A DNA stretch of 64,000 nt from Kiritimatiellia bacterium. Lineage in GTDB: Bacteria; Verrucomicrobiota; Kiritimatiellia; JAAZAB01. The notes below the pieces were generated by a model. That model saw only the letters and a program-made list of their open reading frames with translations, was not told the DNA's origin and made no database searches. Made by a program: the position numbers and the translations under genes. The DNA is taken from NCBI GenBank assembly GCA_040767085.1, contig JAXGPF010000003.1, positions 192,001 to 256,000 on the forward strand. Direction: 5' to 3'. Shown in pieces: positions 10,026 to 36,419 of the stretch (position 1 is its first letter; every line of letters starts with the position of its first letter).

Positions 10026-10042
10026 AAACGACAGGTTTGGAC

Positions 10043-15208: not shown

Positions 15209-16291
15209 ATGGCGCTTTGGAAAATTGGCGGCAACAAACCCCTAAAAGTAAAACAGACACACTTGCCTCAGGAAAAACTATTGGAGGAACATCTTGAAAA
15301 TTGGATTCAGATGGAACCAACCTTGTTGGGTGAGCCTCTTTTAATTATAGGCCGGCAAGTCATAATCCCCGATACCAAGGACAGATTGGACCTGCTCGCT
15401 CTGGACCCACAAGGTCAAGCCGTTATTATTGAGCTTAAACGCGGCAAGATTAAAGACCCGGTTGACATTCAAGCGCTTCGATACGCCAGCTACATTTCAA
15501 AATGGAAATTTGATCAATTTGAAAGCGTAGCACGTAACTTTTTCGGAAAATCGGGCGACTCGGAATTTAACTTTAACGAAGTTTTCGAAACTTTCTGCCA
15601 GGAATCCGGTTCTGATGAAGTCCCGGACTTAAACGAAGACCAACGGGTAATTATCGTTGGTTCTTCCGTGCGGGACAAGCTTGGTAGCGTCGCTTTATGG
15701 CTTAGAGATCATAATATTGACATCAAACTCATAGAGGTTACAGCCTATAAGGAAGGTGAAACAGTTTTTATCGAGCCCAATGTCATTGTTCCGCTTCCTG
15801 TCAGTAGATTTGCTAAAGTAGGGAAAGGGCCTACTAAAGGCACAGCGGCCTGGCAAACAGATGGGCAAACTTGGCATCTTGAAAAACGATGCAGCCCAAA
15901 AACAAAAGAGATGTTAATGGTGTTCGACAAAGACATCCGAGAAGCTCTTCCTGTTGATGGTCCACATTGGGATCAGAAACAATATGTTGCTTATCGCAAA
16001 AACAATTATAATTGGTTGTGTATCCATACTCTGCCAAAAACGCTGATTTTTGATTTTAATGTGAAAGCCGGCACGTTTAAGTCCGATATTCTTGCCAAGA
16101 CTTTGGGTGTCGTGAAATTCGATAAAGATGAAACTATGTCGGAAAAACTGAACCTGCCAAGTTCTGTTACTGTCCGCAACAGAAACGAAACGCGCGATCG
16201 TATTCGTCTTCGCGTGAAAGCTGATTTTGATCTCAAATCAAAAACATTTATCCAGTTTATGACCCAGGCATTTGAATTATGCCCGAAGTAA
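15209..16291 (+). CDS. NucS/DUF91-like PD-(D/E)xK endonuclease
   Basis: EEHLENWI...RLDLLALD...IIELKRG...QALRY; AGGAG RBS. Confidence 0.8.
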   Translation: MALWKIGGNKPLKVKQTHLPQEKLLEEHLENWIQMEPTLLGEPLLIIGRQVIIPDTKDRLDLLALDPQGQAVIIELKRGKIKDPVDIQALRYASYISKWKFDQFESVARNFFGKSGDSEFNFNEVFETFCQESGSDEVPDLNEDQRVIIVGSSVRDKLGSVALWLRDHNIDIKLIEVTAYKEGETVFIEPNVIVPLPVSRFAKVGKGPTKGTAAWQTDGQTWHLEKRCSPKTKEMLMVFDKDIREALPVDGPHWDQKQYVAYRKNNYNWLCIHTLPKTLIFDFNVKAGTFKSDILAKTLGVVKFDKDETMSEKLNLPSSVTVRNRNETRDRIRLRVKADFDLKSKTFIQFMTQAFELCPK

Positions 16292-17418: not shown

Positions 17419-19023
17419 ATGGCCGCAGCAACAGATCAAAATATCGGCATGACAGTGTTCGAACTGCAATCGTTTGAATCCTGGCAAAATCGGATAGAAG
17501 CGGCCGCACAATCCGCCGGCGCCGGCATCACGCGCAAGGGGGCCGGTTGCCAGCTCTGGATGCCGAACCAGTTACTTCCCTTGCGCAAAACCAACTTGCA
17601 TTATGCCGATGGCGTTAAAATTTTCCGGGAATGGCTTGGCCCACGCCGCAACGCATTAGCCATTATCCCTCATCGCGTCTATTTTGAACCCGGCGCAAAT
17701 ACCCCCAGTATCAAGCCGGAACGGATTTTGATTGAAGGCGCACGTCCGGCATTGCCCAGCCCGGACAAACGAATCAGCTCATGTTTGGAATGGGCCGGGA
17801 TTTTATCAAAACATATTGATGGATTTGGTCCTGACCCTATCACGGTCGGACGAGTTCGGCATGATTTACACAAATCAACGCAATTGATTTTTGGCGGCGG
17901 CGCAGTTGTCACACCCGGTTCTAAAATCAGTTTGGCACTGATGAGCCACGGAGGCTATTCCACGCCTGCCCGGCTTCAGATTGAACTCGTGGCGCCCTCC
18001 GCCGCCGCCGGCAAAACAAAAACATATCAAACACTTTTGGCAAATGCCTTGAAGCGCTGTAAATGCCACGGCGTGATCTCGATGTTGACTTACGACAAAT
18101 TGCTGACACGCTTACAATCCGGAACGCCGGTAGCGACGCCCGGCACTTGTATTCTGCTCGCTGTAACCGGCAAAAAAGGCCTGCCGCTGGCCCCGGAATC
18201 CGAGACGCTGATAAATCTCATGGCTAATTTCAACATCCCGTTTCGCATGTTCTCCGTTGACAATCCGGCGCTGAACTGGTCGGCTTTGGATCAAGCCGGA
18301 TCGTTGATTACCGGTGCGGGCGGCATTCCATTCATCACCAAATTACCCTGGCCGGATGATATTGGGGAGCCATTCATTCTGGGAGTGGATGTTGGGCACC
18401 CGCCGACAGGCGAGGAAAGCCAGGTTGTCATTAGTTTAATGGATCATCAAGGTGTTTTGCTGGGGAGTTGGCGCCAATCCCAGCCGCGTGATGAGACAAT
18501 TCACACCGAAACGCTGCAAAATGGATTGACGTGGGCGCTTGAAAAAGCACGGTCAAATATTGCAAACGCAACCCCATCATTCCTGGTGCTGCGCGATGGC
18601 AGGTTGCATAAAGGCGAAAACCCCACATTTTACAGCCAGATACTGGGGCCAAAGACAACATTGATTGAATTTTCCAAACACAACACGCCTGAAATGTTCA
18701 TTATGGGTGCATGCCCGGCATCCGCCAAAGCCGGAACAGAGTGCCTTTTAACCGGTAGTTCCACACCATTTATCACTCCGGTGTCAGCGCGCATGAGCAG
18801 TGATTTATCCCGGACATTCAAAATCAACATGCCACCGGCATGGGATGGCCTGGGGCTTGGAATTGACAGAGTCAGCGAGATTGTGGTAGGATTATCTTAT
18901 ACTTCGGGACTCGGGTTAGCGCCACACGCATTACCCGGCCCAATTTACTGGGCGGACGGCATTGCCGCCATTTGCGAGCACAACCATCAATTTGCGGGGC
19001 AGAATATAATGGAGGGAAGATGA
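17419..19023 (+). CDS. Prokaryotic Argonaute (compact; MID-PIWI with intact DEDD tetrad)
   Basis: ILGVDVGH (D324), PRDETI (E359), VLRDGRL (D393), LPGPIYWADG (D513); L2/MID entry QLIFGGG...HGGYSTP; GAGGIPF before PIWI. Confidence 0.88.
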   Translation: MAAATDQNIGMTVFELQSFESWQNRIEAAAQSAGAGITRKGAGCQLWMPNQLLPLRKTNLHYADGVKIFREWLGPRRNALAIIPHRVYFEPGANTPSIKPERILIEGARPALPSPDKRISSCLEWAGILSKHIDGFGPDPITVGRVRHDLHKSTQLIFGGGAVVTPGSKISLALMSHGGYSTPARLQIELVAPSAAAGKTKTYQTLLANALKRCKCHGVISMLTYDKLLTRLQSGTPVATPGTCILLAVTGKKGLPLAPESETLINLMANFNIPFRMFSVDNPALNWSALDQAGSLITGAGGIPFITKLPWPDDIGEPFILGVDVGHPPTGEESQVVISLMDHQGVLLGSWRQSQPRDETIHTETLQNGLTWALEKARSNIANATPSFLVLRDGRLHKGENPTFYSQILGPKTTLIEFSKHNTPEMFIMGACPASAKAGTECLLTGSSTPFITPVSARMSSDLSRTFKINMPPAWDGLGLGIDRVSEIVVGLSYTSGLGLAPHALPGPIYWADGIAAICEHNHQFAGQNIMEGR

Positions 19024-19048: not shown

Positions 19049-20557
19049 ATGACACAAGTGCGGATAAATAACTTTAAATGTTTTGAAGAGGCTATTGTGC
19101 CGTTGCGCCGCTTGACCTTTATTTATGGACAAAACAGTTCCGGTAAAAGCACGATTTTTCAGGCAATTAATCTGATCCGGCTGGTCATTATGCAACTTAA
19201 TAAAAAAGAGAGTAGATACAGCAAAAACAAGGAACAAGACAAGTCGCGCGAAGATGAAGATATCGGAATGGATGCTTGGAAACGGATCCCTTGGTTTCGC
19301 GGTGGCATTTCAGCCATGCAACGGGACAAAAACGATCCCATTAAAATTGGCTTTACATTGAAATTGGAAGGAGATGGCACAGAAGGAAGCACCTATATTA
19401 CCACAGATATGTCTGTTGGTAATAAGTGGGATTTAGGAAAACACGGCAATTCCCTGCCGGACAAAATTGTTTTTGGCTTTCAATATGGCAAACTTGATGC
19501 GTTCCGCGACAAGGATAACAAATATTTAGATTTAACGATCACGATAAACAATCGCGTGCCAGAAAACCAACAAAGCGTTTTTAGCCGGCAATTCGGCTTT
19601 GTGCAAGTGTCACCGACCCTGTTGGATTGGTTTTGCAGGGAATATAGTCCCGCAAGCGAGCAAATATTCCGGGATTATTTTAATAGCCCATTACCCTTGA
19701 ATTGGGGCGAGGTGCCCTTTTTTAAATCCTTTAACAAAAAGCCTAAATATCCCAATAATGATCATGCGTTTAATAAGGCCTACAAATGGGTTAATGGTTC
19801 GCTTGAACGCGCGTGGGGAGAAATAGAGGATTATCTTAAACCAGCACTCTTGATGGGGTTTTATTCCGGACATATATCCGCCGATGAACATTATATAGGG
19901 CACGATATTCGAAATACTAACGTAAGATTTCATTTAAAAAAAGAATTTGATGATTTCCTAAATAATGAAAAGGTTATAAACCAGGTAAACGAAGCTCTCA
20001 ACCTTCTGGATACTCCACATCGTCTGGATTCAAAGAAAGGCATTCTTGATCTGCGCAAGCAAACATCTGAAAAAGGGAGCGTTTTGACGGAAGTTGGTTA
20101 TGGTATCCAATACCTTGTCCCGAGGCTTTTGTTGCTTTTTGGCGGAGAGCATCCACTATGCATGATCGAGGAGCCAGAAGCACATGTGCATCCGCGTTTA
20201 CAAGCCAAGCTTGGTTCATTGTTTTTAAAACAATCAGCATCTGCTGATATGATGCGGCAACTTATAATAGAAAGTCATAGTGAAAATCTTATTTTGCAAA
20301 TTAAACGCAATATTCATGATATGGCTGAAGCGGATGCAGAAACAGCGAAAAAATGGGCTGATAACATTTTGGCGCTTTACGTTGATTACTCACAGGACAC
20401 TGCAACGCCAGATATTGAAGCCGACGCGGAAAAGCCACAGGCAAACGTTGAGGCAACTCCCCGGATATCATACATCCGAATTGACAGCGAGGGTAATTTT
20501 ATGGATTATTGGCCTAAAGGATTCTTCCCTGAACGTCAAGAAAACCTTTACTACTGA
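19049..20557 (+). CDS. ABC-type (AAA_21-like) ATPase with DUF3696 C-terminus
   Basis: INNFKCF, Walker A GQNSSGKST, VGYG signature, IEEPEAHVHP, IIESHSE, WPKGFF. Confidence 0.9.
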   Translation: MTQVRINNFKCFEEAIVPLRRLTFIYGQNSSGKSTIFQAINLIRLVIMQLNKKESRYSKNKEQDKSREDEDIGMDAWKRIPWFRGGISAMQRDKNDPIKIGFTLKLEGDGTEGSTYITTDMSVGNKWDLGKHGNSLPDKIVFGFQYGKLDAFRDKDNKYLDLTITINNRVPENQQSVFSRQFGFVQVSPTLLDWFCREYSPASEQIFRDYFNSPLPLNWGEVPFFKSFNKKPKYPNNDHAFNKAYKWVNGSLERAWGEIEDYLKPALLMGFYSGHISADEHYIGHDIRNTNVRFHLKKEFDDFLNNEKVINQVNEALNLLDTPHRLDSKKGILDLRKQTSEKGSVLTEVGYGIQYLVPRLLLLFGGEHPLCMIEEPEAHVHPRLQAKLGSLFLKQSASADMMRQLIIESHSENLILQIKRNIHDMAEADAETAKKWADNILALYVDYSQDTATPDIEADAEKPQANVEATPRISYIRIDSEGNFMDYWPKGFFPERQENLYY

Positions 20558-20564
20558 TTTTGCT

Positions 20565-21752
20565 ATGCTCAATTATTGCACCATAGACCCATTTCTCGTT
20601 ACGATGGCGAGAACACCAACAATCCCCTCATCGGGTAACAATATACAAATATCTACTACTTCGGAACCAGCTCCCTCGTCTACTGTCCCCAGACAGGTTG
20701 GTCACAGTTCAATCCGATATTTTCTGAAGAGAGTTGCCAGCCGGCACATTTTGTGCGACTTTTTCCTGGGAGTGAGTGGATCCGGAACGTGTAAATATCG
20801 AAAATATTTTGAGGACATAGTTTTTGCCGGTGAAAATCATTTTGCCGTCTACTGGCGGGAATTTTCTTTGGCTCGACATTTTGAGCGATTAAAAACAGAT
20901 TTTACGAATTTCCGTGATAAGGATCGCCTTGCGAAAATATGCCCGGATGTTTGCCCAAAATCATCTGCGGGTGCTGATGACTGGGGCAACTGGGCCATGA
21001 AAATGGGCTACCTGTTGGCAGGATGCGCCGCCGACGATATAACAATAATTATTGCGCACCATAAGACGGTTGAAATGCTGAATGCGCTACTTAACCATTT
21101 TAAATGTGCGCTTACCCCTGAAACAAGCGCTTATATTGAAAAGTATCGGCGAAACTGCGTAACCGTAGAGAACCAAGCTGAAGCAAGCGGCTTGAAGTTG
21201 AGCGGCAACTTGGAGGTCCTCGAAAATTCGTGGTTTTTGCTTTCAAGCGTGGAACGGTTTGACCGCCGGATAAATCTTTCAATAGGCCTAAATTTAGCGG
21301 GAATACCGGTGACCGAGTTTTTAAAATTGTTAAACCCTATTCGCCAATGCTTTCCGCATGTCTACGCAATACAATCCTCCAAGCCACCAAATAAAACCTT
21401 GGCTTTATGGAAACAAAACAATTTTAATATCAATATAATTACCACTGATAGTTTACCAAAAGAGCATAAAGGGCTTTGGCATGATCGGTTTATTGTATTT
21501 GCTTCACATCCTCGAGAGCAGGGCATGCGATCACCACACCGGTTTGTAGCGTTGGTATTTTCAGCGCCATTTGAGCAGATATTTTATGTGCCTGAACAAC
21601 ATTTTATGCGCCATAATACTTTTTATTTGCGCCAAGGTACTTGCCTTTTGCGCTGTGACAGTGATTGTTCTAATACTCCAGGGTCTCATGAAAATATAGC
21701 AAGCTTTCTTGCAAATACTTCAGCTACGCTCCCCCCTTTATCTGAACCATGA
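20565..21752 (+). CDS. Hypothetical protein with C-terminal HDRF motif (possible PLD-like nuclease)
   Basis: ATG 7 nt after the ATPase stop; GLWHDRFIVF; overlaps the next start (ATGA). Confidence 0.6.
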   Translation: MLNYCTIDPFLVTMARTPTIPSSGNNIQISTTSEPAPSSTVPRQVGHSSIRYFLKRVASRHILCDFFLGVSGSGTCKYRKYFEDIVFAGENHFAVYWREFSLARHFERLKTDFTNFRDKDRLAKICPDVCPKSSAGADDWGNWAMKMGYLLAGCAADDITIIIAHHKTVEMLNALLNHFKCALTPETSAYIEKYRRNCVTVENQAEASGLKLSGNLEVLENSWFLLSSVERFDRRINLSIGLNLAGIPVTEFLKLLNPIRQCFPHVYAIQSSKPPNKTLALWKQNNFNINIITTDSLPKEHKGLWHDRFIVFASHPREQGMRSPHRFVALVFSAPFEQIFYVPEQHFMRHNTFYLRQGTCLLRCDSDCSNTPGSHENIASFLANTSATLPPLSEP

Positions 21753-23233
21753 AGACAAACGCTATGCCTGTCTCAAACAAAGTATCGTGTGGCATCGGAA
21801 ACTATCCTGATGCTTTATTACGGCTATCTCAACAGCATCAGCCTTTTTGCGATTGGCTCTTGCTCGGACGTTACATTCTTCTGGGAGACGATGGAATTTC
21901 CAATGATGAGCGCAAGGATATCAAGCGGACGAAAGAATATCAACAATTTGCCAATATGTTTTTTGATTTAATCCAGAATATCGAGCGTAATACTCTTGTT
22001 ATTAACTCCGAAACCGCAGACATCCTGACTGGTCTTGCGGCATTTTATGTTTCTTTACGATGTGTTGTGTCGTACAAAAAGAATGTCATGATCAAGGCCA
22101 TGCAATACAACATATTGTTGTATAATTCTATAATATCGGCAATGAAGAGAAACAAAATACACTCATCTATATTTGCCGAAAACATAGTCGCTGGATGTGA
22201 AATTGTGCTCAAGGCAACCGCTAATGACAAGAAGAAAACCCCAGAAGCGCTGGATGCCGGCGTTGATCTGTTGGGTAAATTAATGGAAAGAGTTCCAGGT
22301 GCAACGCCGCTGGGTGACGCCATATTGCGTTATATACGTGATTGGCAGGCGCTGGGCTCCATTGAGGATTCCTGGCTTGAACAAAAACGTGATCAGGCTT
22401 TGTTGCGTTATGTAGGGATAGACGACAACTATTTAAGCAAATATGAAGAATTCAAGGCATGGACGAATTATCACCCTGATGATAATGGTGCAGCAAAAAG
22501 ACTTTTCTTTTTTGCTAAACCTTTAGTTGAAGTGTTTTGCCGGGAAAAACGTTATGAAGACGCCGCTAAAGTATGTGTTGATATTTATAATTTGCACATT
22601 CTTTCAGACACATACAAGCAAGCCATGTTTTGCTTGTTTTACGACTCTTTAACCTTGGATTTGTCTAACGCCAAATGTGAGATCAACCTCGCCCTAAATG
22701 CGCTTATAATTATTTTTGACAAACTAAAACCGGCGGATAATTTTGTTTCAGCCCATTTTGCTGAATTAAAATTATGGGCTGCTATTGGACATATTCAGGC
22801 AAGACGTTCAAAAGACAACGCATCCATTATTAAAGATTTGCCAGAACCCTTGCCCATATCTGAACATGCTCAAAATAAAATTGCCTGGGAAATTTATCGC
22901 CGTTGCAAGCTTTGTATAAAAACTGACCCAATAATGGTTATTGACATGCTTGAACTATATGCTCATTTATCGGAAATAGAAAAGCCGTCTTTGCTTCATT
23001 CCATGATGTTGCAATACGCAACACGTGTTGGTTCATCTTGGACTGGTTTTATTAAATTTATGCGTACACGAGATATGGCTACTTTCCGCCCGGAGGATTT
23101 CAAGACGACAGTTTATGGCAATCGCACATATAACAGTTTGGTTGATAACACTATAAAATGCCTATATCAAACAATAAAACATCAAAAATGGCGTATTATG
23201 GAATCGGCAAGACCCACCGTCAAGGCAATATAG
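21749..23233 (+). CDS. N-terminal part of a helical/TPR-OB-fold protein (DUF7017/TOTE-like), probably a split gene
   Basis: AWEIY...EKPSLLHSMMLQYA...FRPEDF...YNSLV resembles the N-half of TPR + S1/CSD proteins. Confidence 0.6.
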   Translation: MKTNAMPVSNKVSCGIGNYPDALLRLSQQHQPFCDWLLLGRYILLGDDGISNDERKDIKRTKEYQQFANMFFDLIQNIERNTLVINSETADILTGLAAFYVSLRCVVSYKKNVMIKAMQYNILLYNSIISAMKRNKIHSSIFAENIVAGCEIVLKATANDKKKTPEALDAGVDLLGKLMERVPGATPLGDAILRYIRDWQALGSIEDSWLEQKRDQALLRYVGIDDNYLSKYEEFKAWTNYHPDDNGAAKRLFFFAKPLVEVFCREKRYEDAAKVCVDIYNLHILSDTYKQAMFCLFYDSLTLDLSNAKCEINLALNALIIIFDKLKPADNFVSAHFAELKLWAAIGHIQARRSKDNASIIKDLPEPLPISEHAQNKIAWEIYRRCKLCIKTDPIMVIDMLELYAHLSEIEKPSLLHSMMLQYATRVGSSWTGFIKFMRTRDMATFRPEDFKTTVYGNRTYNSLVDNTIKCLYQTIKHQKWRIMESARPTVKAI

Positions 23234-23239
23234 GCCGTA

Positions 23240-24699
23240 TTGGACTATCCCCAAAATATCCTGTGGGATTTTGCGCGGATAGTGTTATTTTCTAAGAAAG
23301 TGAGTGAAAAACGGATTTTTCTGACCATCTGGAAAGTGAAATAGTGGTCTCCAACTGGAAATCCCGTATAATTGGGGTTGAACCAACCAAGAAGGAGACC
23401 ACCGGAATGAATAATAGTCAGACGGCATTCAAATTGCGATCTCAACTTTTAAAATATTTGGGGATATTTTCACCCCATTTTTCCAAACCAGCATTGGCTT
23501 TTCTTGGTGACATGCTCTATGGGATCCAGGCATCCAAAGATATCAAGCTGAGTTGCATTGGCAGGGGCCTGGACGAGGTGATTTCGCTCAAGAAAACCGA
23601 AGAGCGATTAAGCCGGAATCTGGGATGTGAGGGGCTGGCTCAGAGGGTATCGGATTGTTTGGCGTGTGAAGGCGCCAGGCACATAGGGAATGACACCTTG
23701 ATTGTGATAGATCCGACCGATATTCGGAAGCTCTACGCCCGGAAAATGCCATATTTGGCAAAAGTGCGAGACGGGAGCAGCGGCGAGATCGGCAACGGGT
23801 ATCATTGCGGTGTTGCAGTGGCTTGCGAAAGCGGCGGACGCAGTATAGTCCCTTTGCATCTGCGCCTATGGTCGAGCACCGCGCCTGATTTCAAAAGTGA
23901 AAACGATGAGATTGAACAAATCGTCAGCACTATCTGCGCGGGTGCAAAACGACGCGGGATTTACGTTGTGGACCGCGGCGGCGACCGTGACAAGCTGTTT
24001 AATGTGTTAATTGACAGACGCTTGCGATTCATTGTGCGTTTGATTGGCCACCGCCATCTGTTGTGGAGAAAACGCCCCATCCTGGCTGAAAAGCTAGTTG
24101 GTAAATGCCGGATTTCTCACGTTGAAACCATCCGTCGTGAAACTGCCGAAGGTGAAAAAATTTACCGGATTGAATACGGTGCAATTAATGTGTTTCTGCC
24201 GGAACATCCCGATAAACCATTGCGCATGGTCGTTGTGAAGGGATTTGGAGCAAAGCCCATGATGCTCCTGACGGACTTGGCCGGTGGAGATTCCCGGAAA
24301 GGTCTCTGGCAGGTCATTGAAGGATACCTGAGTCGCTGGCGGGTCGAAGATGCGATTCGCTACATCAAGCAAAGCTATCGCCTTGAGGACATCCGCCTGA
24401 TGGATTACACGCGGCTTCGCAACATGATGGCCATGCTGCTGGCCACTGTTTTCTTTGCTTCCGTGTGGCTCGGCAAATCTTTACGCAAAAGCATTCTGGT
24501 CGGCAACATCACCCGCGTTTCCAAGCGACTTTTCGGTGTAGTGGAGTTCCATTATTACGCTATCGCTGACGGCATTGCCGCCTTGTTGCGCCGTTTCGGA
24601 AAATGGCACGGCGCCTGGAATGGCCCCGCCCGAAACACTGTCTCACACCAATTGGAATTAGCCTTGTTTGATTCAGGATAAAAAATGGGGATAGTCCAA
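23240..24699 (+). mobile_element. IS4-family insertion sequence, 1460 bp
   Basis: 14-bp perfect IRs TTGGACTATCCCCA (23240-23253 and 24686-24699); 13-bp target duplication AATATAGGCCGTA (23227-23239, 24700-24712). Confidence 0.93.
23407..24681 (+). CDS. IS4-family DDE transposase
   Basis: IVIDPTD, VVDRGGD, YLSRWRVEDAIRYIK (Y-2-R-3-E-6-K). Confidence 0.92.
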   Translation: MNNSQTAFKLRSQLLKYLGIFSPHFSKPALAFLGDMLYGIQASKDIKLSCIGRGLDEVISLKKTEERLSRNLGCEGLAQRVSDCLACEGARHIGNDTLIVIDPTDIRKLYARKMPYLAKVRDGSSGEIGNGYHCGVAVACESGGRSIVPLHLRLWSSTAPDFKSENDEIEQIVSTICAGAKRRGIYVVDRGGDRDKLFNVLIDRRLRFIVRLIGHRHLLWRKRPILAEKLVGKCRISHVETIRRETAEGEKIYRIEYGAINVFLPEHPDKPLRMVVVKGFGAKPMMLLTDLAGGDSRKGLWQVIEGYLSRWRVEDAIRYIKQSYRLEDIRLMDYTRLRNMMAMLLATVFFASVWLGKSLRKSILVGNITRVSKRLFGVVEFHYYAIADGIAALLRRFGKWHGAWNGPARNTVSHQLELALFDSG

Positions 24700-24762
24700 A
24701 ATATAGGCCGTAAAGTATACGGAAGCACTTGATGAAGCATCCGTAGAGCTATAACCATAATA

Positions 24763-24798: not shown

Positions 24799-24872
24799 AA
24801 AGAGATCTCTTTGCTTGCTCTTGTATAGTTTAGCCTTCGTAATTGGTATTGCCAAATATTCAGGATATTAAG

Positions 24873-26147
24873 ATGGATAATGAATCAAAAACCACTGCGA
24901 AGAAGGATGACGCAGAACATCGCCTTGCGGAGTTGCATAACACGCAAAAAGTAAAGAATACCGGTGACGCGCCTTCAAAAGCCGGAAATGATGACTTCGA
25001 TATAGAGATCAAAAAACAGACCGCCGATACTGAAGAAGATTACCAGGCGCTAATTGACGCATACGAAGACGAATGCGCCCCAGTTGATGAATTGGATTGC
25101 CCGGACGATAGCACAGACGATATTTCTGATTTGTCTTTCGCGCTCGATTTTGTCCAACGCTATTACAAGCAGTGTTCACAACAAACATACGCGGCATATT
25201 ACTACGCAAAACTGCTTTTATTCGCTGATCATAAAAATCAGGCACAAACAGTGTTGCTTGAAGACGCGATTAGTCTTTCCAACAAATATTGGTTTTGGAC
25301 AACGCTCGCTGATACTTTCCAAAACAATGACGACAAAAAACGCCAGGCATGTCTATGCAAGGCGATATTGACAGCCCGGCCCGAAGACGCAAAATATCTA
25401 AATCCTTTGCGCAGGGATTTGCGCGACATATTTAAAGACAACCCAGAATATAACACTGAATCCGACAATTTACCGCTTTATCAGAAATACGCTATTCCAG
25501 CCGATGCAATCGCGACTACAACTCTTAATTGGTTGCCGGCTGTTGTGTTGGGCGTCAAGGATGGAAGCAATATCCGCGTATTATTTCGACAAGATGATAT
25601 GTATTTGTGCGCGAAAGGCACACTAAACGACAACAAATGGTCACACCTTAAACGCGGCGCTTCTATTAGCGTAAAAATCACGGGGAACGCACCTGACATC
25701 ATGGTTCTTTGCATTAAAATACGACGTGCATCAGACTGGAGTATTTTGCCATGGGAGTTTGCAGTTGTTGTGCAAAAATATTCAGCTCGCAAAAGCGTAA
25801 TATTGGCTTTAGTAAAGGGGAAAACACTGATTGTGTCCTCGCGGATATGGCGGGAAGCGGTGAATTGGGAATTAGGCGACATACTGCAAATTAAAATCTT
25901 GCGCGCGGATGGCGAGGAAATAATTGTCGCCTCGAAAATATCACATAAAACCCCCGATTTTGTAAAAAAGACAACCAGTGTCGTTTTGCAAATTAATAAT
26001 GAAGGATGCGCTTGGGTTGATGATGATACTTTTCTGCCGCGCAGACTGACCGCATAGCTTGGTTTAATGAAAGGCGACAAGGTAAGCCTGACAGCGGTTG
26101 AAACCGCGCAAAACAAGTGGGAAACTATTCAAGCCGATAAAAATTGA
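24873..26147 (+). pseudogene. C-terminal part of the TPR-OB protein with an internal TAG at 26055-26057
   Basis: YYYAKLLL...YWFWTTLADTF...ACLCKAI (TPR-like), then beta-rich OB-like repeats; the frame continues past TAG as LGLMKGDKVSLTAVETAQNKWETIQADKN. Confidence 0.65.
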
Positions 26148-26151
26148 TTTT

Positions 26152-26260
26152 GAGACGCTGTAGAGGTGTGTTTGAGGCCGATGAATGCAATTGCTCGGCC
26201 GGTTATTACGGGTCAGTATGACCCAATGTCGATTCGATGTTAAATCCTCTGCAGCGTCTC
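26152..26260 (+). ncRNA. Candidate RT-associated structured ncRNA
   Basis: 15-bp closing stem GAGACGCTGTAGAGG/CCTCTGCAGCGTCTC (one G-U pair) enclosing hairpins GGCCGA/TCGGCC and GGGTCA/TGACCC; ends 8 nt before the RT ATG. Confidence 0.65.
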
Positions 26261-26268
26261 TTTATTTT

Positions 26269-27987
26269 ATGAGTGAATTGATCGCCAGCGTAACATTGCA
26301 TAAAGTTGCTAATATTCTGATAGGGTTGCGCCTAAAGGATATGCGCGCGCGCCATGATTGCCTTTTTTATTATCAAATCAGTGATGCGGCGCCTTCCGAA
26401 GAGGCCATGCGCGAGTCCGGCGCAGCGAATTATTTGCCGCCACGCCGGCAATGGATACGTCCTGCCCGAGCGGACAGAGCCGGTTTGAATCACGATGCTG
26501 TCGTGCGCAAAGGGATATGGAAAACAATAGCCACACATTTGCGTGGTGGCACGCTCGACAGCACCCTCTGGGGACAACAACTTCTTTCTTTACACGCTGA
26601 AATACAGGAAGCGTTTAATGCGCCTGAAAACACTGTGTTTACACCACCTGACGTTTTGTTAATAAAAAAAGCTGAAACCGGCAAGTATCGCATAATGGCG
26701 CCCTGCGCAAACATAAAGGAGCGTATAATCAGTGGTATTCTGGCGCGCTATTTTGAAGATTTAATTGAATCAGTATTGGATGATTCGTGTTATTCCTTCC
26801 GCATGAACGGCCAAACTCTCCACGACGCAATTTTGAATCTACAGACATATAGCCAAAACAACACCGACAAAATGCTGTATGTTGCAGAATGCGACTTGCG
26901 TGGGTTTTTTGACAGTCTATGCCATGATGTTGCCATTGATGCCGTAAAATATTTGGCTTCTATTCGCCACATAACCATTGATCCCGGAGCCATGGTTTTG
27001 CTGAATTCACTTTTGCGCTCATATTCTTTTCCGGGTTATGCGTTACCTAAAGCACTTGAAAAATTAAAAGATAATACGACAGGTTGCATTGACTGGTTGT
27101 CTCCACAAGAGCGCAATAAAATATATGGCAAAATTGCAGATACCGCCATAGGTATCCCGCAGGGAAATCCGATTTCTCCTGTTTTGGCAAATGCAGCATT
27201 AACTTTTGCGGACAAACAAGTTAAATCCGTATTGGGAACCGAAGGCTTTTACGCACGCTATTGTGATGATATAATTCTTTTACATCCTGACAGAAAAATA
27301 TGTGATTCAGGCTTGAAAGCTTATTATCACGCCATTACAAAACTTCGTCTGCCGGCACACCCAGCGGAGATTGTTGTAAAATACAGCAAATCTCATTACA
27401 ATAAAAAATCCCGCAAACCTTACCCTTGGGGTGACGATAAATCCATGGAAAAGGCTATGCCGTGGATACAATTTGTTGGGTATCAACTGCACAGGGACGG
27501 AATAATTAGAATTCGCAAACAAAGTATAAATAATCAAAAAATGGCAATAAACAAAGTCGTTGCTACAGCTCGGAAGATTGTTCACAAATCTAAAAAAAAC
27601 AATATTCCGTTGAAACTGGACCCGAAAAAAATATATTGCAAAGTGATAATGCGCCTTGTTCGCGCAGGGCTTGGCGACCGCCGGCCTAAAGCAGGCACAC
27701 ATCCGATCGCTGAGCCATGCTGGATTGACGCATTCCCTCTGATCGAAAGGAATCCATGGACAGAAAAGCAAATGCGGGAATTGGATCGCCATAGAGAGAT
27801 TGCATCGCGTAAATTTAAATATTGGCTCGTAAATAATGACAATTTTGTCGAAAACAATGAGTTTTCTGGCCGAAATAAAGAAAAACGCCCTGAACCATTT
27901 TATGGTGCCCCATACAGTTATTATTGCGCGTTGGATAGAGAAAAGAACAGAATCAGGGATTTTAATGCAAATTATGGCAATATTTAA
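26269..27987 (+). CDS. Reverse transcriptase (unknown-group/DRT-like)
   Basis: KKAETGKYR, DDSCYSFR, ECDLRGFFDSL, GIPQGNPISPVLAN, ARYCDDII, IQFVGY. Start placed at MSELI. Confidence 0.92.
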   Translation: MSELIASVTLHKVANILIGLRLKDMRARHDCLFYYQISDAAPSEEAMRESGAANYLPPRRQWIRPARADRAGLNHDAVVRKGIWKTIATHLRGGTLDSTLWGQQLLSLHAEIQEAFNAPENTVFTPPDVLLIKKAETGKYRIMAPCANIKERIISGILARYFEDLIESVLDDSCYSFRMNGQTLHDAILNLQTYSQNNTDKMLYVAECDLRGFFDSLCHDVAIDAVKYLASIRHITIDPGAMVLLNSLLRSYSFPGYALPKALEKLKDNTTGCIDWLSPQERNKIYGKIADTAIGIPQGNPISPVLANAALTFADKQVKSVLGTEGFYARYCDDIILLHPDRKICDSGLKAYYHAITKLRLPAHPAEIVVKYSKSHYNKKSRKPYPWGDDKSMEKAMPWIQFVGYQLHRDGIIRIRKQSINNQKMAINKVVATARKIVHKSKKNNIPLKLDPKKIYCKVIMRLVRAGLGDRRPKAGTHPIAEPCWIDAFPLIERNPWTEKQMRELDRHREIASRKFKYWLVNNDNFVENNEFSGRNKEKRPEPFYGAPYSYYCALDREKNRIRDFNANYGNI

Positions 27988-28748
27988 TTACCCGAAGATT
28001 TTTCCCATTCCCCGGCATCGGCAATATGCACGAAACACCGGCTGGTGTGGGTGGTGTCCCAGTCTGTTAAATCGTATGGATCCTGGGCATGTTTTTGCTT
28101 TTTCCGCCGGCCAGGCGCCAGCCCCATGCCATACGCTGGGCTGGGTTCGCCAACCATGTTGTATCTTGTCTTATTCCGGATCGGAAACCGCCGAATAAAT
28201 GCCGCGCTTTTCATGGGAAATACCATGATTTGCAGTCCGCCATAGACTGACTGCCCTGTTATTTGCTCTTCCACGGTTTGTCCGGATCCCATCGGCGCCG
28301 CCACAAATTGGCGAACGATTCCGGGGCCGGAACAATAGCCGTCTAATTTACGCTGTTCGGGAATCACCAGATAATTCTGGGGATGTCGACTGAGCGTGTT
28401 TTCCCATCGCTGACCGGTAACGGCATTGATTTTGCCGGCAGCCACCAGCACGGCAAACGGATACGCGGAACCACTATCCTCAATGTATGCCGAGTTAAAG
28501 GTCAAGCGCAGCGCTTCTGACTGAGCCATGGGCAGCATGACCCCGCCATGCTCCAGCCAGGCGGCGGAGATTTTTCCGGCAAAATCATCTACGTGGTATA
28601 AAGGGCAACGGTCCGTGGCATTTGGCAGGACATCGCCTTTTCTATCATCGCGCGAGCGCCGCGTGCGCTGAAATGCCACCCGCATTGCAGCGCTGGGATG
28701 GACTTCGGGAAACGAGAATACGAGTTGTTTATTTTCGATTAAAATCAC
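27984..28748 (-). CDS. Conserved hypothetical protein, possibly C-terminally truncated
   Basis: GGVMLPMAQSEAL, GKINAVTG, PQNYLVIPEQRKLDGY, VRQFVAAPMGSGQTVEEQ match a widespread uncharacterised family. Confidence 0.7.
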   Translation of the reverse strand: MILIENKQLVFSFPEVHPSAAMRVAFQRTRRSRDDRKGDVLPNATDRCPLYHVDDFAGKISAAWLEHGGVMLPMAQSEALRLTFNSAYIEDSGSAYPFAVLVAAGKINAVTGQRWENTLSRHPQNYLVIPEQRKLDGYCSGPGIVRQFVAAPMGSGQTVEEQITGQSVYGGLQIMVFPMKSAAFIRRFPIRNKTRYNMVGEPSPAYGMGLAPGRRKKQKHAQDPYDLTDWDTTHTSRCFVHIADAGEWEKSSGN

Positions 28749-28782: not shown

Positions 28783-29133
28783 TCACCATTTTCCATCGCG
28801 GACCTCCCTGATCACACGCAAAACGGCGTGATCCGGCATGTCCTTCAATTCCCGGATGATTTCGGCAAACAGGCGCGGGCGTTTCGTTATGATTTCGCGG
28901 AGGTCGGATGACACCTTGCCGGCCATGGCCAGCAGGAAGTCGGGGTCCTCCTGAAGCGCCACCGCCAGGCGCCGGATTGTGGCCTCGGACGGTGGGGCAG
29001 CTATATTCCGTTCAATTTTGCTTAAATATGATGGTTCCAAGCCAATCCGGGCAGCCACTTTACGGACAGTGTAGGTCGGTCCGTTTTCCGACAATTTTTC
29101 TCTTTTATCACGAATATAGTTGCCAAAATTCAT
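28783..29133 (-). CDS. XRE-family HTH regulator
   Basis: FGNYIRDKRE...VRKVAARIGLEPSYLSKIER. Confidence 0.9.
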   Translation of the reverse strand: MNFGNYIRDKREKLSENGPTYTVRKVAARIGLEPSYLSKIERNIAAPPSEATIRRLAVALQEDPDFLLAMAGKVSSDLREIITKRPRLFAEIIRELKDMPDHAVLRVIREVRDGKW

Positions 29134-29221: not shown

Positions 29222-30676
29222 ATGACAACCAGGCTTGAAATATCGGATGATGACTTTGCAGCGGCCATGGCCGCTCAGCCCAAAAACGATTTGTTATTGG
29301 AGGGGAAGTACTGCGACTTACTTAGTGCTATGCAGGACGAAAATATTGAAGATGATGAAATATTTCGATTAGCTACACGGTATTGCATGCCGCTTTCGTT
29401 GTATCACCCGCCCAAATTTTACCTTTTTCCCGGAATAGTCGGCTTCGAATTATTGGTCAATTTGGTTATAGACGTGATGAAAAATATTGCGAAGCGTTCC
29501 GATCTTTCGCCCGACCAACGACAGACCTTGGAATTGTTTAAAAAGGATTTGGTGGGTTTACCTGAAAGTCGCCCGGCAACCGAAAGCAGTTTCAGTTTAA
29601 CCTACCGCCCCCAACCGAAGAATCAAGGAATGCTTAAACATTATTTTGCGTGTGAATTGTCGCCAAGCGAGTTGCATCTGTATGCGGGCGAGTTCGACGA
29701 GATGAATGACCATAACAGCACTTACTCATTTGAACTTGACGCGGACGGTAGATTTGAGGAGAGCGGATTACTGGGGGCATGGCTGGAGTGTATAGGTATT
29801 GCGGAGGATCTATCTTATAAGGTGCTTGTTTCCGCCGTGTTGCCGGTATCGTCTAGGCCGACGGCCACGACTGCCGCACCTGAACCCAAAGACGAAGATA
29901 GGCCGAGTCCGCCCCCGCCGCCGGTTTTGACCTGGGAAGAGATCGAACAAGGAAAGGCGGGGCAACTGGATTTTCCCGCACTTGTGACGGCACCGAGCAT
30001 GGCGGAACGCGCGTTTCTGTCGCTGTCCCGTGAATGGCTGGCGGAATATCAAGGTCAAACTCCGCCCAAGTGTCTAACAAGTCACATGGGGGATTTGGCA
30101 TTAGCGTGTTTGCTGTTGGCTGTTGAATGGGGGAAAGATTTTACGAGGGTTGCACACGCACAGATGGAGGAAAACAGGATCACCGCTGCCGGGCACGCGA
30201 AACCTTCATGGATGAATGAGCTCCCTTGGCAGCTTTGTCAATCCGTCGGCCTGAAGGCGGCTCCAAAGGATACAAAAGCCGTGGCAAATCTGACCGTCAA
30301 CCTGGATCATCATAATTCGTCAATCCGTTACTGGATGATGGAAATCGGTTGGTTCACGGTTCCCTGGCTTGACCGCGTAGAAGCAACCCTCCGCCTCTTT
30401 AAGAACCTAGCGGATACACTCTGCGGACCATTCATGGCGGCAGGACTGGCGTCACGGTTTTTTGACAAAGAGGAGGAATTTTTCAACATTGCCAAGAAGT
30501 TCAAGCCCCCCAAGGGGTTTGAGGATCAGTATCAAGACCGACTGAAGCACGTTGAAAAGCATGGCATTCTGACCATGCAAACGATTTTTTGGCAGGACGA
30601 AGCGATATGCCGGAGGGAAATTGAGCTGGCAGTCTTATCGTGGCGGGTGCGGAAGATGGCAAAACAAAAAACATGA
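29222..30676 (+). CDS. Hypothetical protein
   Basis: 484-aa ORF divergent from the XRE gene; no recognised motif. Confidence 0.7.
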   Translation: MTTRLEISDDDFAAAMAAQPKNDLLLEGKYCDLLSAMQDENIEDDEIFRLATRYCMPLSLYHPPKFYLFPGIVGFELLVNLVIDVMKNIAKRSDLSPDQRQTLELFKKDLVGLPESRPATESSFSLTYRPQPKNQGMLKHYFACELSPSELHLYAGEFDEMNDHNSTYSFELDADGRFEESGLLGAWLECIGIAEDLSYKVLVSAVLPVSSRPTATTAAPEPKDEDRPSPPPPPVLTWEEIEQGKAGQLDFPALVTAPSMAERAFLSLSREWLAEYQGQTPPKCLTSHMGDLALACLLLAVEWGKDFTRVAHAQMEENRITAAGHAKPSWMNELPWQLCQSVGLKAAPKDTKAVANLTVNLDHHNSSIRYWMMEIGWFTVPWLDRVEATLRLFKNLADTLCGPFMAAGLASRFFDKEEEFFNIAKKFKPPKGFEDQYQDRLKHVEKHGILTMQTIFWQDEAICRREIELAVLSWRVRKMAKQKT

Positions 30677-34231: not shown

Positions 34232-34786
34232 ATGCATAAGGTACTCAACAGCGGTCATTTTATCAAGTATTTAGAGCGATTTGATGGGAAGATTGCGCAG
34301 GCCGCCAAGGCGGAGATGTGCCGGTATTGCGGCGGCAAGCTGCATTGCGGCGATTATGCGCGCAAGCCGCGCGGTGTTGTCGGGTGGGATAAACGCCACA
34401 GTTTTAACTGTGCGCGGTGTCGGCGGCGCAAGACGCCGCCCAGCGTGCGTTTTCTTGGGCGCCGGGTTTATGCGGGCGTGGTGGTGGCGCTGGTGAGCGC
34501 GCTGATGCATGGTCTGAATGCTGGGCGCGCGCAGGTATTGGTTGAAAAACTGGGCATTGACCGGCGAACATTAAAGCGTTGGCTTGCATGGTGGCGCGCG
34601 GTGTTTGTGACGAGCGGGTTTTGGAAGGGCGCTCGGGCGAGTTTTATGCCACAGGTTGAGGCTACCCGGATGCCGTTGAGTTTATTGGAGGCGTTTGGCG
34701 CGGAGCGGCGCCGCGGGATGTTCAAGCTGTTACTTTTTATTGCGCCGATTACCACTGGTTCGTGTGAAATGGCGGTGGTTATGTGA
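34232..34786 (+). CDS. Zn-finger/HTH accessory protein of the transposon (DUF6431-like)
   Basis: CRYCGG...RKPRG...CARCRRRKTPPSVRFLGRRVY...IDRRTLKRW. Confidence 0.7.
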   Translation: MHKVLNSGHFIKYLERFDGKIAQAAKAEMCRYCGGKLHCGDYARKPRGVVGWDKRHSFNCARCRRRKTPPSVRFLGRRVYAGVVVALVSALMHGLNAGRAQVLVEKLGIDRRTLKRWLAWWRAVFVTSGFWKGARASFMPQVEATRMPLSLLEAFGAERRRGMFKLLLFIAPITTGSCEMAVVM

Positions 34787-34922
34787 TGGTTGTTTTTCTC
34801 CCGCAGAGCATGCCGCTGGAGCTTTGCGCGAGGGCGTTATACCTTGGGCGGCATTGCAACGGAATGGTCGGCGGAGCGGAATGGATTTCGCTTGGCGGCG
34901 GGCCAGACGGGAGGGGTGCGCA

Positions 34923-36419
34923 ATGCCAAAACAGGATGCGGATTATAGCGCGGGTGGCGGTGGTTCCGGGGGATGCGCGCGGTGGGCGCATTTTCGTTTC
35001 AGCGTAATTGGCCCATTATTGGCGGCGCCGCCGGGGCGGGGCGATTTGCAGGCGGAGATTGCGCTTCTGGCCGGCAAGCAATGGCGGCATCCGGTGACGG
35101 GGCAATGGGTGCGGTTTGGGTCTTCCACGATTGAGCGGTGGTATTACCGGGCTTTACATGGGGCCAAAGACCCGGTCGGCGTGTTGACGCGCAAGGTGCG
35201 CAACGATCATGGCGCCCATCGCAGTTTGAGCTTTGAGTTGCGCAATGCAATAAGCGTCCAGCACCAACAACACCCGGAGTGGAGTTGCCAACTGCATTAC
35301 GACAACCTGGCGGTGCGCGTGGCGGAGGATTCGCGACTGGGAGCGTTACCGTCTTATGTGTCGGTGCGCCGTTATATGCGTGCCGCGGGGATGTTCAAGC
35401 GCCGCCGTTTGGGCGGGCGCCGGGATACCGCCGGCGCCCGGGCCGCCGAAGCGCGGTTTGCGGCTTTAGAGGTGCGCTCCTACGAAAGCGAGTACGTCAA
35501 TGCGCTATGGCATTTGGACTTTCATCAGGGATCAATCCCGGTCTTGACCAAGCCCGGCGAGTGGTTGCGGCCGCAATTACTTGGAGTGTTGGACGATCAT
35601 TCCCGCATGTGCTGCCACTTGCAGTGGTACCTGGCGGAAACCGCCGAGAACCTGACGCATGGGTTAAGCCAAGCCATGCAAAAATGCGGTCTGCCAAGGG
35701 CGCTGATGACGGACAACGGCGGCGCCATGACGGCCGACGAAACCACGCAAGGACTCGCGCGTTTAGGTGTTTTACACGAGAAGACGCTGCCCTATAGCGC
35801 CTACCAGAACGGCAAACAGGAATCCTTCTGGGGGCAAATAGAAGGGCGGTTGCTGCCCATGCTCGGCGGCTGCCCTGATTTGACGCTGGCACAGCTCAAC
35901 CAGGCGACACAGGCCTGGGTCGAAATGGAATATAACCGCAAGGTGCATTCCGCGACCGCCCGATCGCCGGTTGATCGTTTTGTCAATGTCAAAGACGTGG
36001 GCAGAACTTGCCCATCCGCGGAAGTCTTGCGCCAGGCATTCACCGCCGGATGTTCGCGAACGCAACGCTTTAGTGATGGCACCATTAGCATTGACGGCGT
36101 ACGCTTCGAGGTGCCTTCCCGCTACCGCCATATCAAACGCATCGGCGTGCGATACGCCGCATGGGACTTGTCTTATGTTCATCTGGCCGACGCGCGTAGC
36201 GATCAAATCTTGACGCGGCTATTTCCGCAAGACAAACACAAAAACGCCGACGGCCACCGCCGCCAAAAGGAAACCATAGGCGACCATCCCGATCCAACAT
36301 CGCCGCCGCCGCGGTCAACCGGCATGGCGCCACTGTTGCGCAAATTCATCGCGGATTATGCCGCCACCGGGCTGCCGCCAGCTTATCTGCCAAAGGATGA
36401 ACTCAAAATACAGGAGTAA
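34923..36419 (+). CDS. DDE transposase (rve integrase core, Mu-like C-terminus)
   Basis: LWHLDF, LDDHSR, MTDNGG, QNGKQESF, YNRKVHS. Confidence 0.9.
   Translation: MPKQDADYSAGGGGSGGCARWAHFRFSVIGPLLAAPPGRGDLQAEIALLAGKQWRHPVTGQWVRFGSSTIERWYYRALHGAKDPVGVLTRKVRNDHGAHRSLSFELRNAISVQHQQHPEWSCQLHYDNLAVRVAEDSRLGALPSYVSVRRYMRAAGMFKRRRLGGRRDTAGARAAEARFAALEVRSYESEYVNALWHLDFHQGSIPVLTKPGEWLRPQLLGVLDDHSRMCCHLQWYLAETAENLTHGLSQAMQKCGLPRALMTDNGGAMTADETTQGLARLGVLHEKTLPYSAYQNGKQESFWGQIEGRLLPMLGGCPDLTLAQLNQATQAWVEMEYNRKVHSATARSPVDRFVNVKDVGRTCPSAEVLRQAFTAGCSRTQRFSDGTISIDGVRFEVPSRYRHIKRIGVRYAAWDLSYVHLADARSDQILTRLFPQDKHKNADGHRRQKETIGDHPDPTSPPPRSTGMAPLLRKFIADYAATGLPPAYLPKDELKIQE

Follow-up and report, generated by a model that had tools for sequence, protein, structure and literature searches.

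The present analysis concerned a structured RNA located immediately upstream of a reverse transcriptase (RT) gene in a 64,000-nt stretch of the genome of a Kiritimatiellia bacterium (assembly GCA_040767085.1, contig JAXGPF010000003.1, positions 192,001 to 256,000 of the forward strand), referred to here as the window and used as the reference for all coordinates. The RT belongs to UG39 (former UG28b), a member of the Class 2 UG/Abi enzymes, and the segment 26152-26260, together with the flanking junction and a U-rich tail, is likely to be its cognate non-coding RNA (ncRNA), serving as scaffold and probably as template. A template or scaffold role had been put forward in an earlier note on this DNA. 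The proposal was supported by the comparative evidence and by the analogy with the DRT2, DRT9 and DRT10 systems, on both of which the assignment of the role rests. A Class 2 UG RT with an upstream ncRNA is a kind of system already known and expected, and the finding is therefore of limited surprise to specialists; the RNA family, its architecture closed by the helix P1, a motif in the RT tail and the sets of partner genes appear to be undescribed.

Folding of positions 26140-26275 returned a minimum free energy (MFE) of -53.0 kcal/mol, as compared with a mean of -31.5 +/- 3.2 kcal/mol for dinucleotide shuffles (z = -6.67), and none of 200 shuffles was as stable. The structure is closed by P1, in which GAGACGCTGTAGAGG (26152-26166) pairs with CCTCTGCAGCGTCTC (26246-26260) through 15 uninterrupted base pairs, 14 of them Watson-Crick and one U-G, thus confirming the 15-bp closing stem described in the earlier note. 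P1 encloses 79 nt carrying three hairpins, P3, P4 and P5, for a total RNA length of 109 nt. P3 and P4 are the two hairpins already recognized, and P5 had been missed (pair probabilities are given in Table 1). The proposed extension of P1 by GUUUGA/UUAAAU did not hold up: it can form, with 6 pairs of which two are G-U, but it is disfavoured, showing a mean probability of 0.13 and a penalty of 1.6 kcal/mol (-51.4 versus -53.0 kcal/mol) when the fold is forced to use it. The minus strand of the structure folded to just -44.1 kcal/mol, in agreement with the assignment to a + strand RNA. The sole run of three or more U inside 26152-26260 is the UUU at 26171, and UUUU occurs solely in the 3' tail.

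The structure starts 4 nt past a TGA codon (26145-26147) and ends 8 nt short of the ATG at 26269, so that it occupies the gap between the two codons as had been claimed; the TGA, however, is in frame with the upstream open reading frame (ORF) 24843-26057 only if a TAG at 26055-26057 is read through. In alignment A2, the four closest RT relatives begin at the residue encoded by the ATG at 26269. Within the RNA structure, a further in-frame ATG (26185) opens a 600-aa ORF, and the protein collection lists the RT as that 600-aa product. Since the alignment of the closest relatives supports the start at 26269 and a protein of 572 aa, the longer gene call is probably an artefact.

The RT matched the PADLOC model RT_UG39 over profile positions 9-538 of 541 (380 bits, E 5.7e-114), thus placing it, by a full-length match, among the Class 2 UG/Abi enzymes; UG39 itself stands under the Class 2 section heading in PMC9226505. 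The next PADLOC models, Drt2 (87.8 bits) and Drt9 (69.7 bits), scored far lower, as did RT_UG17 (62.9 bits), and RT_UG39 was the sole PADLOC match for both the N-terminal and the C-terminal third of the protein. Retron and group II intron models remained far under their cutoffs. No Drt9-level NCBIfam match was found for the RT, which thus falls outside the Drt9 family, and an assignment to PDC-M16A was considered and rejected. A word-index search returned 41 clusters of homologues, four at 45-54% identity by BLASTP (44-53% in alignment A2) and the others near 30%, and a profile built from 36 members, run against 1.84 billion representatives, recovered 594 clusters (50% identity) at E <= 1e-30. 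The RT had no match in the phage collection and a single one, at 30% identity, in plasmids.

An AlphaFold2 model of the RT, calculated from a 36-sequence alignment, showed a pLDDT of 88.9 and a pTM of 0.87. Its top solved structural match was DRT9 (9vma_A; E 8e-14, TM 0.54/0.61 over 554 columns). Group II intron RTs and DRT2, which ranked 11th, came after it, and retron RTs were 17th or lower. By sequence only, the match to DRT9 chains reached just E 6.7e-4. In the 36 sequences, C332, D333 and D334 of the catalytic YCDD are invariant and Y331 is nearly so. A second conserved element, G-x-P-[FY]-S-Y, lies in the C-terminal tail, with G in 35, P in 28, F/Y in 33, S in 33 and Y in 31 of the 36 sequences. 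It is flanked by disordered segments (527-541 and 558-572, pLDDT <50), the block-mean for 541-560 being 67-68. DRT9 primes DNA synthesis from two C-tail tyrosines (PMC12483538) and DRT10 from a serine (PMC12632851); given these precedents, we consider the tail motif a candidate protein-priming site.

Conservation of the RNA was evaluated at loci encoding homologous RTs. The loci were drawn from species-representative genomes (at least 80), metagenomes (65) and related genomes (2), and according to the record titles their source taxa include Kiritimatiellae, Bacteroidota, Cyanobacteria, Myxococcota, Acidobacteriota, Planctomycetia and Gammaproteobacteria among others. An RT match of at least 100 bits was present at 122 loci; a start codon was assigned in 113, at least 200 nt of upstream DNA was available in 108, and 97 had non-identical upstream regions. 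The start was taken as the one nearest the position expected from the alignment, with ATG preferred, and for the first 62 loci it was also chosen manually. The four relatives at 44-53% identity were not recovered as DNA among the genome matches listed, the metagenome contigs or 60 related genomes, and the comparison at the DNA level therefore spans relatives at about 30% identity.

MFE folds of the 220 nt upstream of the RTs showed a recurrent long helix that encloses a branched interior of 80-200 nt and stops a few bases short of the RT start, in sequences otherwise unrelated; the helix sequences themselves vary between lineages. The best uninterrupted helix was then scored at each locus, with a span of 45-230 nt, G-U pairs allowed and the 3' arm ending no more than 35 nt from the start, and was expressed as z relative to the dinucleotide shuffles of that same locus. 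At the 97 RT starts, z was at least 2 in 55 cases and at least 3 in 42, and 33 had 12 or more uninterrupted base pairs. The same counts were 4, 2 and 2 for 193 gene-internal windows and 12, 2 and 6 for 189 starts of other ORFs of at least 200 aa in the same loci, some of the 12 positive ones being divergent genes that share the same intergenic region. The difference between RT starts and gene-internal windows gave a Mann-Whitney p of 4e-24. The MFE of the 180 nt upstream of the RT had a median z of -1.49, as compared with +0.23 inside the gene, with z <= -2 in 35 and 3 of 97 loci respectively. The test misses bulged helices, as at locus L015, where an obvious but interrupted 16-bp stem scored z = 0.7. 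A previous procedure, duplex folding of the 5' against the 3' flanks, was replaced by the per-locus z, as its pooled tails resembled the controls despite a Mann-Whitney p of 3e-9.

Taking together the clear helix and the matches to two covariance models, R1 and R2, described below, the element was recognized at 62 of the 97 loci. A conserved structured RNA thus accompanies this Class 2 RT at most of the homologous loci, and one of the outcomes that the earlier note had named as fatal to its interpretation, namely the lack of such a structure, did not occur. A clear P1 was also present at 8 of the 16 loci where a VirE-like gene is divergently oriented, indicating that the helix is tied to the RT rather than to the 3' end of an upstream gene. 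In the 49 loci with a clear helix, the tail from P1 to the RT start had a median length of 10 nt and a U fraction of 0.50, against a background of 0.27; UUU occurred in 34 of these tails and a Shine-Dalgarno-like core in 3.

One subfamily of sixteen elements, mostly from peat metagenomes with the addition of a Chitinophaga metagenome-assembled genome and one other, could be aligned by MAFFT (alignment A3). Over the 26 pairs of P1 and two inner helices, 90.5% of the cells were paired, as compared with 29-50% when the partners were slid; 14 of the 26 pairs showed double-sided changes, and none of 500 shuffles attained the observed values. The covariance model R1, built from this alignment, detected 26 loci at E <= 5e-6 and every match ended at the RT start. 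Ten of the matches lay outside the seed, one of them being nearly identical to a seed. In the elements of this subfamily (L091-L136, L009, L019 and L092), the inner end of P1 is marked by UGGUCGCG and CCGCAACCA, both invariant, and by a C-A mismatch that is likewise conserved; a hairpin loop of the GAAUCAAGUUGCUACGGCAC type is strongly conserved as well. These are likely to be elements contacted by the RT or used as template.

Alignment by MAFFT also revealed a core common to the window and its relatives, consisting of the junction motif, a hairpin of 5-7 bp whose loop starts A-U/A...A-A-G, and an A/U-rich joiner starting G(G)U. In an alignment of 18 segments including the window (A6), made without reference to structure, 84% of the P3 cells (26176-26181 with 26195-26200) were paired, as compared with 25-56% for slid partners. 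Double-change cells numbered 24, against 9.4 +/- 2.0 in shuffles, with none of 500 shuffles attaining 24; five rows misaligned at the 3' strand (L002, L030, L085, L127 and L024) were retained in this count. A further MAFFT alignment of the P3 segments that left out the window had three misaligned rows and was not used. The model R2, built on the core with 18 seeds, the window among them, was applied to 98 loci other than the window and yielded 25 + strand matches lying upstream of RTs, together with 2 at other places. From these locus matches only, the model R3 was built and run against the whole 64 kb on both strands at E <= 10, the sole match being 26170-26209 on the + strand (16.9 bits, with a roughly calibrated E of 0.041). 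Single-sequence folds of the relatives also placed a hairpin after the joiner, like P4. RNAalifold on the MAFFT alignments found only P1 and nothing for the P4 region, which MAFFT could not align.

The orientation of the RNA was assessed from its wobble pairs. Across the 97 loci, a helix model allowing G-U pairs, which corresponds to a + strand RNA, outperformed the A-C model expected for a - strand RNA in 49 cases against 24, with 24 ties (Wilcoxon p = 0.006); G-U pairs made up 55 of the 644 pairs in the clear helices. The R1 scores at the same places were 30-144 bits for the + strand, as compared with 9-23 bits for the - strand. These data bear out the strand proposed earlier from the G-U pairs of the window.

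Several observations weigh against a cognate scaffold and template RNA at this locus. No element signal by helix, R1 or R2 was present at 35 of the 97 loci. The choice of RT start codons was partly rule-based and partly manual, the limits of the helix search were set with the folds already known, and the p-values overstate the evidence because the loci are related. R1 found no match on the window, so that the RNA studied here belongs to a divergent sub-type sharing only P3 and its flanks with the others, a relationship of marginal significance given the rough calibration of the R3 match; that match is supportive and not decisive, because the E-values are rough and the seeds of R2 included the window. 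The covariation that the earlier note had proposed as a check was found for one subfamily and for hairpin P3. Contigs from 4 metagenome runs provided three pieces over the structure (26092-26448, 26101-26364 and 26208-26358), which showed no differences and, being identical, were uninformative on P1 covariation at the strain level. No sigma-70-like promoter was predicted on the + strand within 25700-26500, and the sequencing runs in which the stretch was present were 20 DNA runs from 14 studies, with no RNA run among them. Finally, a template of the DRT9 type is not evident, because the structure contains no run of four or more U.

The short distance between the RNA and the RT gene would also suit a cis-acting leader of the RT mRNA, controlling translation or transcription of the RT, for instance by keeping the start region near P1, instead of acting in trans as scaffold or template. 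Just 8 nt separate the 3' arm of P1 from the ATG, the U-rich linker is devoid of a Shine-Dalgarno-like core both in the window and in 46 of the 49 clear-P1 loci, and no separate promoter or terminator was predicted. However, the ncRNAs of DRT2, DRT9 and DRT10 adjoin their RT genes as well, directly upstream in DRT2 and DRT9, and yet they act as scaffold and template (PMC9226505, PMC12483538, PMC12632851), and the conserved internal motifs (UGGUCGCG...CCGCAACCA and the P3 loop start) exceed the needs of a simple occluding stem. We therefore regard a purely regulatory leader as unlikely. The two roles are not mutually exclusive, and translation of the RT may depend on the RNA fold or on a mode of initiation other than Shine-Dalgarno.

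A terminator or 3' element of the upstream gene, unrelated to the RT, is suggested by the start of the structure 4 nt past the upstream TGA and by a G+C-rich stem followed by a U-rich run, but it appears very improbable: no intrinsic terminator was called in 25700-26500 (0 sites), the stem encloses 79 nt, and equivalent helices occur whatever the upstream gene, including the eight loci with an opposite-strand gene and a clear P1, and at 55 of 97 RT starts as compared with 12 of 189 starts of other genes. The inverted repeat bracketing a structured RNA just 5' of the RT is reminiscent of a retron msr-msd gene, and the earlier note had described the ends as a1/a2-like. The flanking repeat is present, but the likeness does not go beyond resemblance, since the RT scored 39.8 bits on the best retron model (cutoff 235) against 380 on RT_UG39 and retron RTs rank low among its structural matches; a long msd-type hairpin is absent from the fold, as already remarked in that note, the internal hairpin stems being of 6-7 bp only. 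Rfam 15 gave no match in the window at gathering scores, and 26100-26300 returned only a chance lncRNA match at E 9.6. A retron is thus even harder to sustain than a terminator. The presence of an insertion sequence (IS) 1.5 kb upstream might evoke mobile-element ends, such as those of a miniature inverted-repeat transposable element (MITE), or a repeat arisen by chance. The 136-nt stretch had one match in the 4.08-Mb assembly and is thus single-copy, which excludes the dispersed repeat considered in the earlier note; moreover, no shuffle folded as well, the IS carries its own, different terminal repeats, and the structure is conserved family-wide. The probability of this last explanation is close to nil.

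The interpretation as a cognate RNA of the UG39 RT was then compared with the described systems, the RNA of DRT9 being taken from published descriptions. UG39 was split from UG28, the group of DRT9 (PMC9226505, PMC8934634), and DRT9 is also the nearest solved fold. In both, the ncRNA is encoded immediately 5' of the RT and in the same orientation, its 3' end carries a U-rich stretch, and the RT has a flexible C-tail with conserved hydroxyl residues (Y496/Y498 in DRT9, PMC12483538). However, the RT scores 69.7 bits on Drt9 as compared with 380 on RT_UG39, and the partner genes differ from those of UG39 loci. The DRT9 RNA measures 150-188 nt and has six stem-loops and an irregular loop with a universally conserved U tract (PMC12483538, PMC12489045), whereas the RNA of the window has 109 nt, three hairpins, a long P1 and no internal run of four or more U, and thus lacks both the six stem-loops and the poly-U loop. 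In 301 genomes of the phylum, the Drt9 profile returned only partial matches to the RT core, some of them multi-copy and probably group II introns.

DRT10 (UG17) is likewise a Class 2 UG RT. In that system, a stem-loop 5' of the template loop sets the template boundary, an RT serine primes synthesis and an accessory protein is required (PMC12632851). A joiner placed after P3 would fit such a layout; in contrast, the RT scores just 62.9 bits on RT_UG17 and no SLATT neighbour is present. DRT2 (UG2), the second-best PADLOC match, also belongs to the Class 2 UG RTs and has a structured ncRNA upstream. Its DNA synthesis is primed from the 3' end of that ncRNA and produces a concatemeric gene (PMC12632851), whereas nothing at the UG39 locus suggests either feature. 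Retrons share the structured RNA bracketed by an inverted repeat 5' of the RT and differ in the RT clade, in the msd hairpin and in the retron effector, both absent here. As to UG39 as defined by Mestre et al. 2022 (PMC9226505), its VirE + PriCT-2 neighbour was also found in 23 of the loci examined here, whereas the partner in the window is a TPR-DUF7017-S1/CSD protein.

By analogy with these systems, we infer the following course of events. The RNA would be made on the + strand, most likely by co-transcription with the upstream partner gene and the RT, and would fold into a multi-branched structure closed by the 15-bp P1. The RT would bind it as a scaffold and copy a short internal single-stranded segment repeatedly into DNA, the conserved P3 loop start and the joiner GGUUAUUAC after P3 being the candidate templates. 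Copying would probably start at a Ser/Tyr of the flexible C-terminal tail, as in DRT9 and DRT10, and the DNA product would either exert its effect via the protein of the neighbouring partner gene or be detected by that protein, which is TPR-DUF7017-S1/CSD in the lineage of the window and a VirE/PriCT-2 primase-like protein in Bacteroidota relatives. On the same analogy the UG39 system is probably anti-phage; the defence prediction for UG39 is graded 'inconclusive' in PMC9226505. More speculatively, and with low confidence, UG39 could be a distinct, undescribed DRT type, in which P3 would mark the template boundary, the joiner, with its two UUA, would be copied, and the P1-closed RNA would resemble a miniature telomerase RNA. 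Repeats primed from the Ser/Tyr of the G-x-P-F-S-Y tail would then yield an A/T-rich tandem-repeat single-stranded DNA read by the S1/CSD OB-fold or VirE/PriCT-2 partner, and P1, lying at a start codon without a Shine-Dalgarno sequence, would couple RT translation to RNA folding.

In PMC9226505 and PMC8934634, ncRNAs are predicted for UG2, UG3+UG8, UG27 and UG28, with none named for UG39 in the passages cited here. A full-text search of the literature naming UG39 or UG28b, the supplements of PMC9226505 aside, found no ncRNA described for either, and a similar search on TOTE conflict systems with a reverse transcriptase, or on an RT ncRNA with PriCT-2 and VirE, found nothing. A small RNA is converted into DNA by each of DRT2, DRT9 and DRT10, the product being unexpected and different in every case, and the authors of the DRT10 study note that most UG systems still await characterisation of their templates and products (PMC12632851). 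UG39 is a sizeable group, with its 594 clusters and with loci examined here from many phyla, and the present data make it directly testable by providing the RNA coordinates, a covarying core (P1, junction motif, P3 and joiner), a candidate priming motif and three partner architectures. The features of the locus and of its surroundings are collected in Table 1.

Table 1. Features of the UG39 locus and of the upstream genes in the window.
Feature	Position	Strand	Evidence or remark
SNF2 + NOV_C helicase	1039-4587
STAND NTPase with Schlafen AlbA_2 domain	4584-6902
DUF1156 protein	6912-10025
DUF4062/HATPase_c_4 protein	9779-11608
DUF499/HmaC-like ATPase	11897-14746
PDC-S11	15209-16291
pAgo/PIWI-like protein	17419-19023
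AAA_15/AAA_21 ATPase	19049-20557
Partner gene, N-terminal piece, TPR-DUF7017-S1/CSD	21749-23233	+	PDC-M16B, E 1.8e-16
IS target-site duplication AATATAGGCCGTA	23227-23239 and 24700-24712		13-bp direct repeat
IS4/IS701-like insertion sequence, 1460 bp, splitting the partner gene	23240-24699	+	14-bp perfect terminal inverted repeats
IS terminal inverted repeats	23240-23253 and 24686-24699		14 bp, perfect
IS DDE transposase ORF	23344-24681
Partner gene, C-terminal piece, in-frame TAG at 26055-26057	24843-26147	+	DUF7017, E 3.9e-15
P1 5' arm	26152-26166	+	pair probability 0.998 with 26246-26260
Junction motif UUUGA before P3 (family consensus CUUugA)	26171-26175	+	MAFFT alignment A6, model R3 consensus
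P3 hairpin, stem GGCCGA/UCGGCC, loop start AUGAAUG	26176-26200	+	pair probability 0.997
Joiner GGUUAUUAC, A/U-rich, between P3 and P4	26201-26209	+	single-stranded in the MFE fold save 3 weak pairs
P4 hairpin GGGUCA-GUA-UGACCC	26210-26224	+	pair probability 0.936
P5 weak hairpin, two G-U pairs; conservation not seen	26225-26241	+	pair probability 0.901
P1 3' arm	26246-26260	+	pairing with 26152-26166
Linker UUUAUUUU, U-rich, P1 to RT start codon, without Shine-Dalgarno-like core	26261-26268	+	sequence
RT gene, 572 aa, UG39 (former UG28b), Class 2 UG/Abi	26269-27987	+	PADLOC RT_UG39, Pfam RVT_1
Catalytic YCDD, residues 331-334	27259-27270	+	conserved in 36 sequences (see text)
C-terminal tail motif GAPYSY, residues 546-551, candidate protein-priming Ser/Tyr	27904-27921	+	36-homologue alignment

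The genes upstream of the RNA fell into three architectures. A 327-aa protein with BT4734-like_N (VirE-like) and PriCT_2 domains was found at the 23 loci mentioned above, on the opposite strand in 16 of them. In the peat subfamily, the neighbours were AAA_25 proteins (14 loci) and NYN-type RNase-like proteins (6 loci); at five loci (L094, L098, L118, L126 and L135) a protein with a Zc3h12a-like NYN ribonuclease domain lay just upstream of the RNA, with an AAA_25 protein beyond it. The third architecture, a TPR-DUF7017-S1CSD-TOTE-2 protein (PADLOC PDC-M16B-like), was shared by the window and loci L002, L004, L010, L015 and L083. This protein has 711-927 aa where the ORF is complete and is encoded on the same strand, 127-191 nt before the RT, with intact relatives of the window partner (870-927 aa) at L002, L004 and L015.

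In the window, the partner gene is split by the IS, and the TAG at 26055-26057 cuts off its last 30 codons. With the TAG translated as X, the C-terminal piece gave a weak S1CSD-TOTE-2 match that extends across the stop. One contig from another metagenome run (X13), a single contig with a depth of 2.9, reads TTG at this codon, and the TAG therefore looks like a strain-specific nonsense allele, or is possibly an error. As the partner gene is broken by both the IS and the nonsense codon, the system may be inactive in this strain.

Judging from the domain content of the neighbouring genes, the surroundings look like a defence island. Downstream of the RT, ORFs 27984-28748 (- strand, 254 aa) and 29222-30676 (+ strand, 484 aa) had no Pfam, NCBIfam or PADLOC match, and a small HTH_3 regulator is encoded at 28783-29133 on the - strand; these three genes are not conserved beside the RT in other loci. 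Further downstream, an rve integrase (34695-36419), an AAA_22 protein (36429-37259) and an AAA_25 protein (37419-38423) stand in a row that looks like a Mu/Tn7-like transposition module, and because of this module the island may sit on a mobile element.

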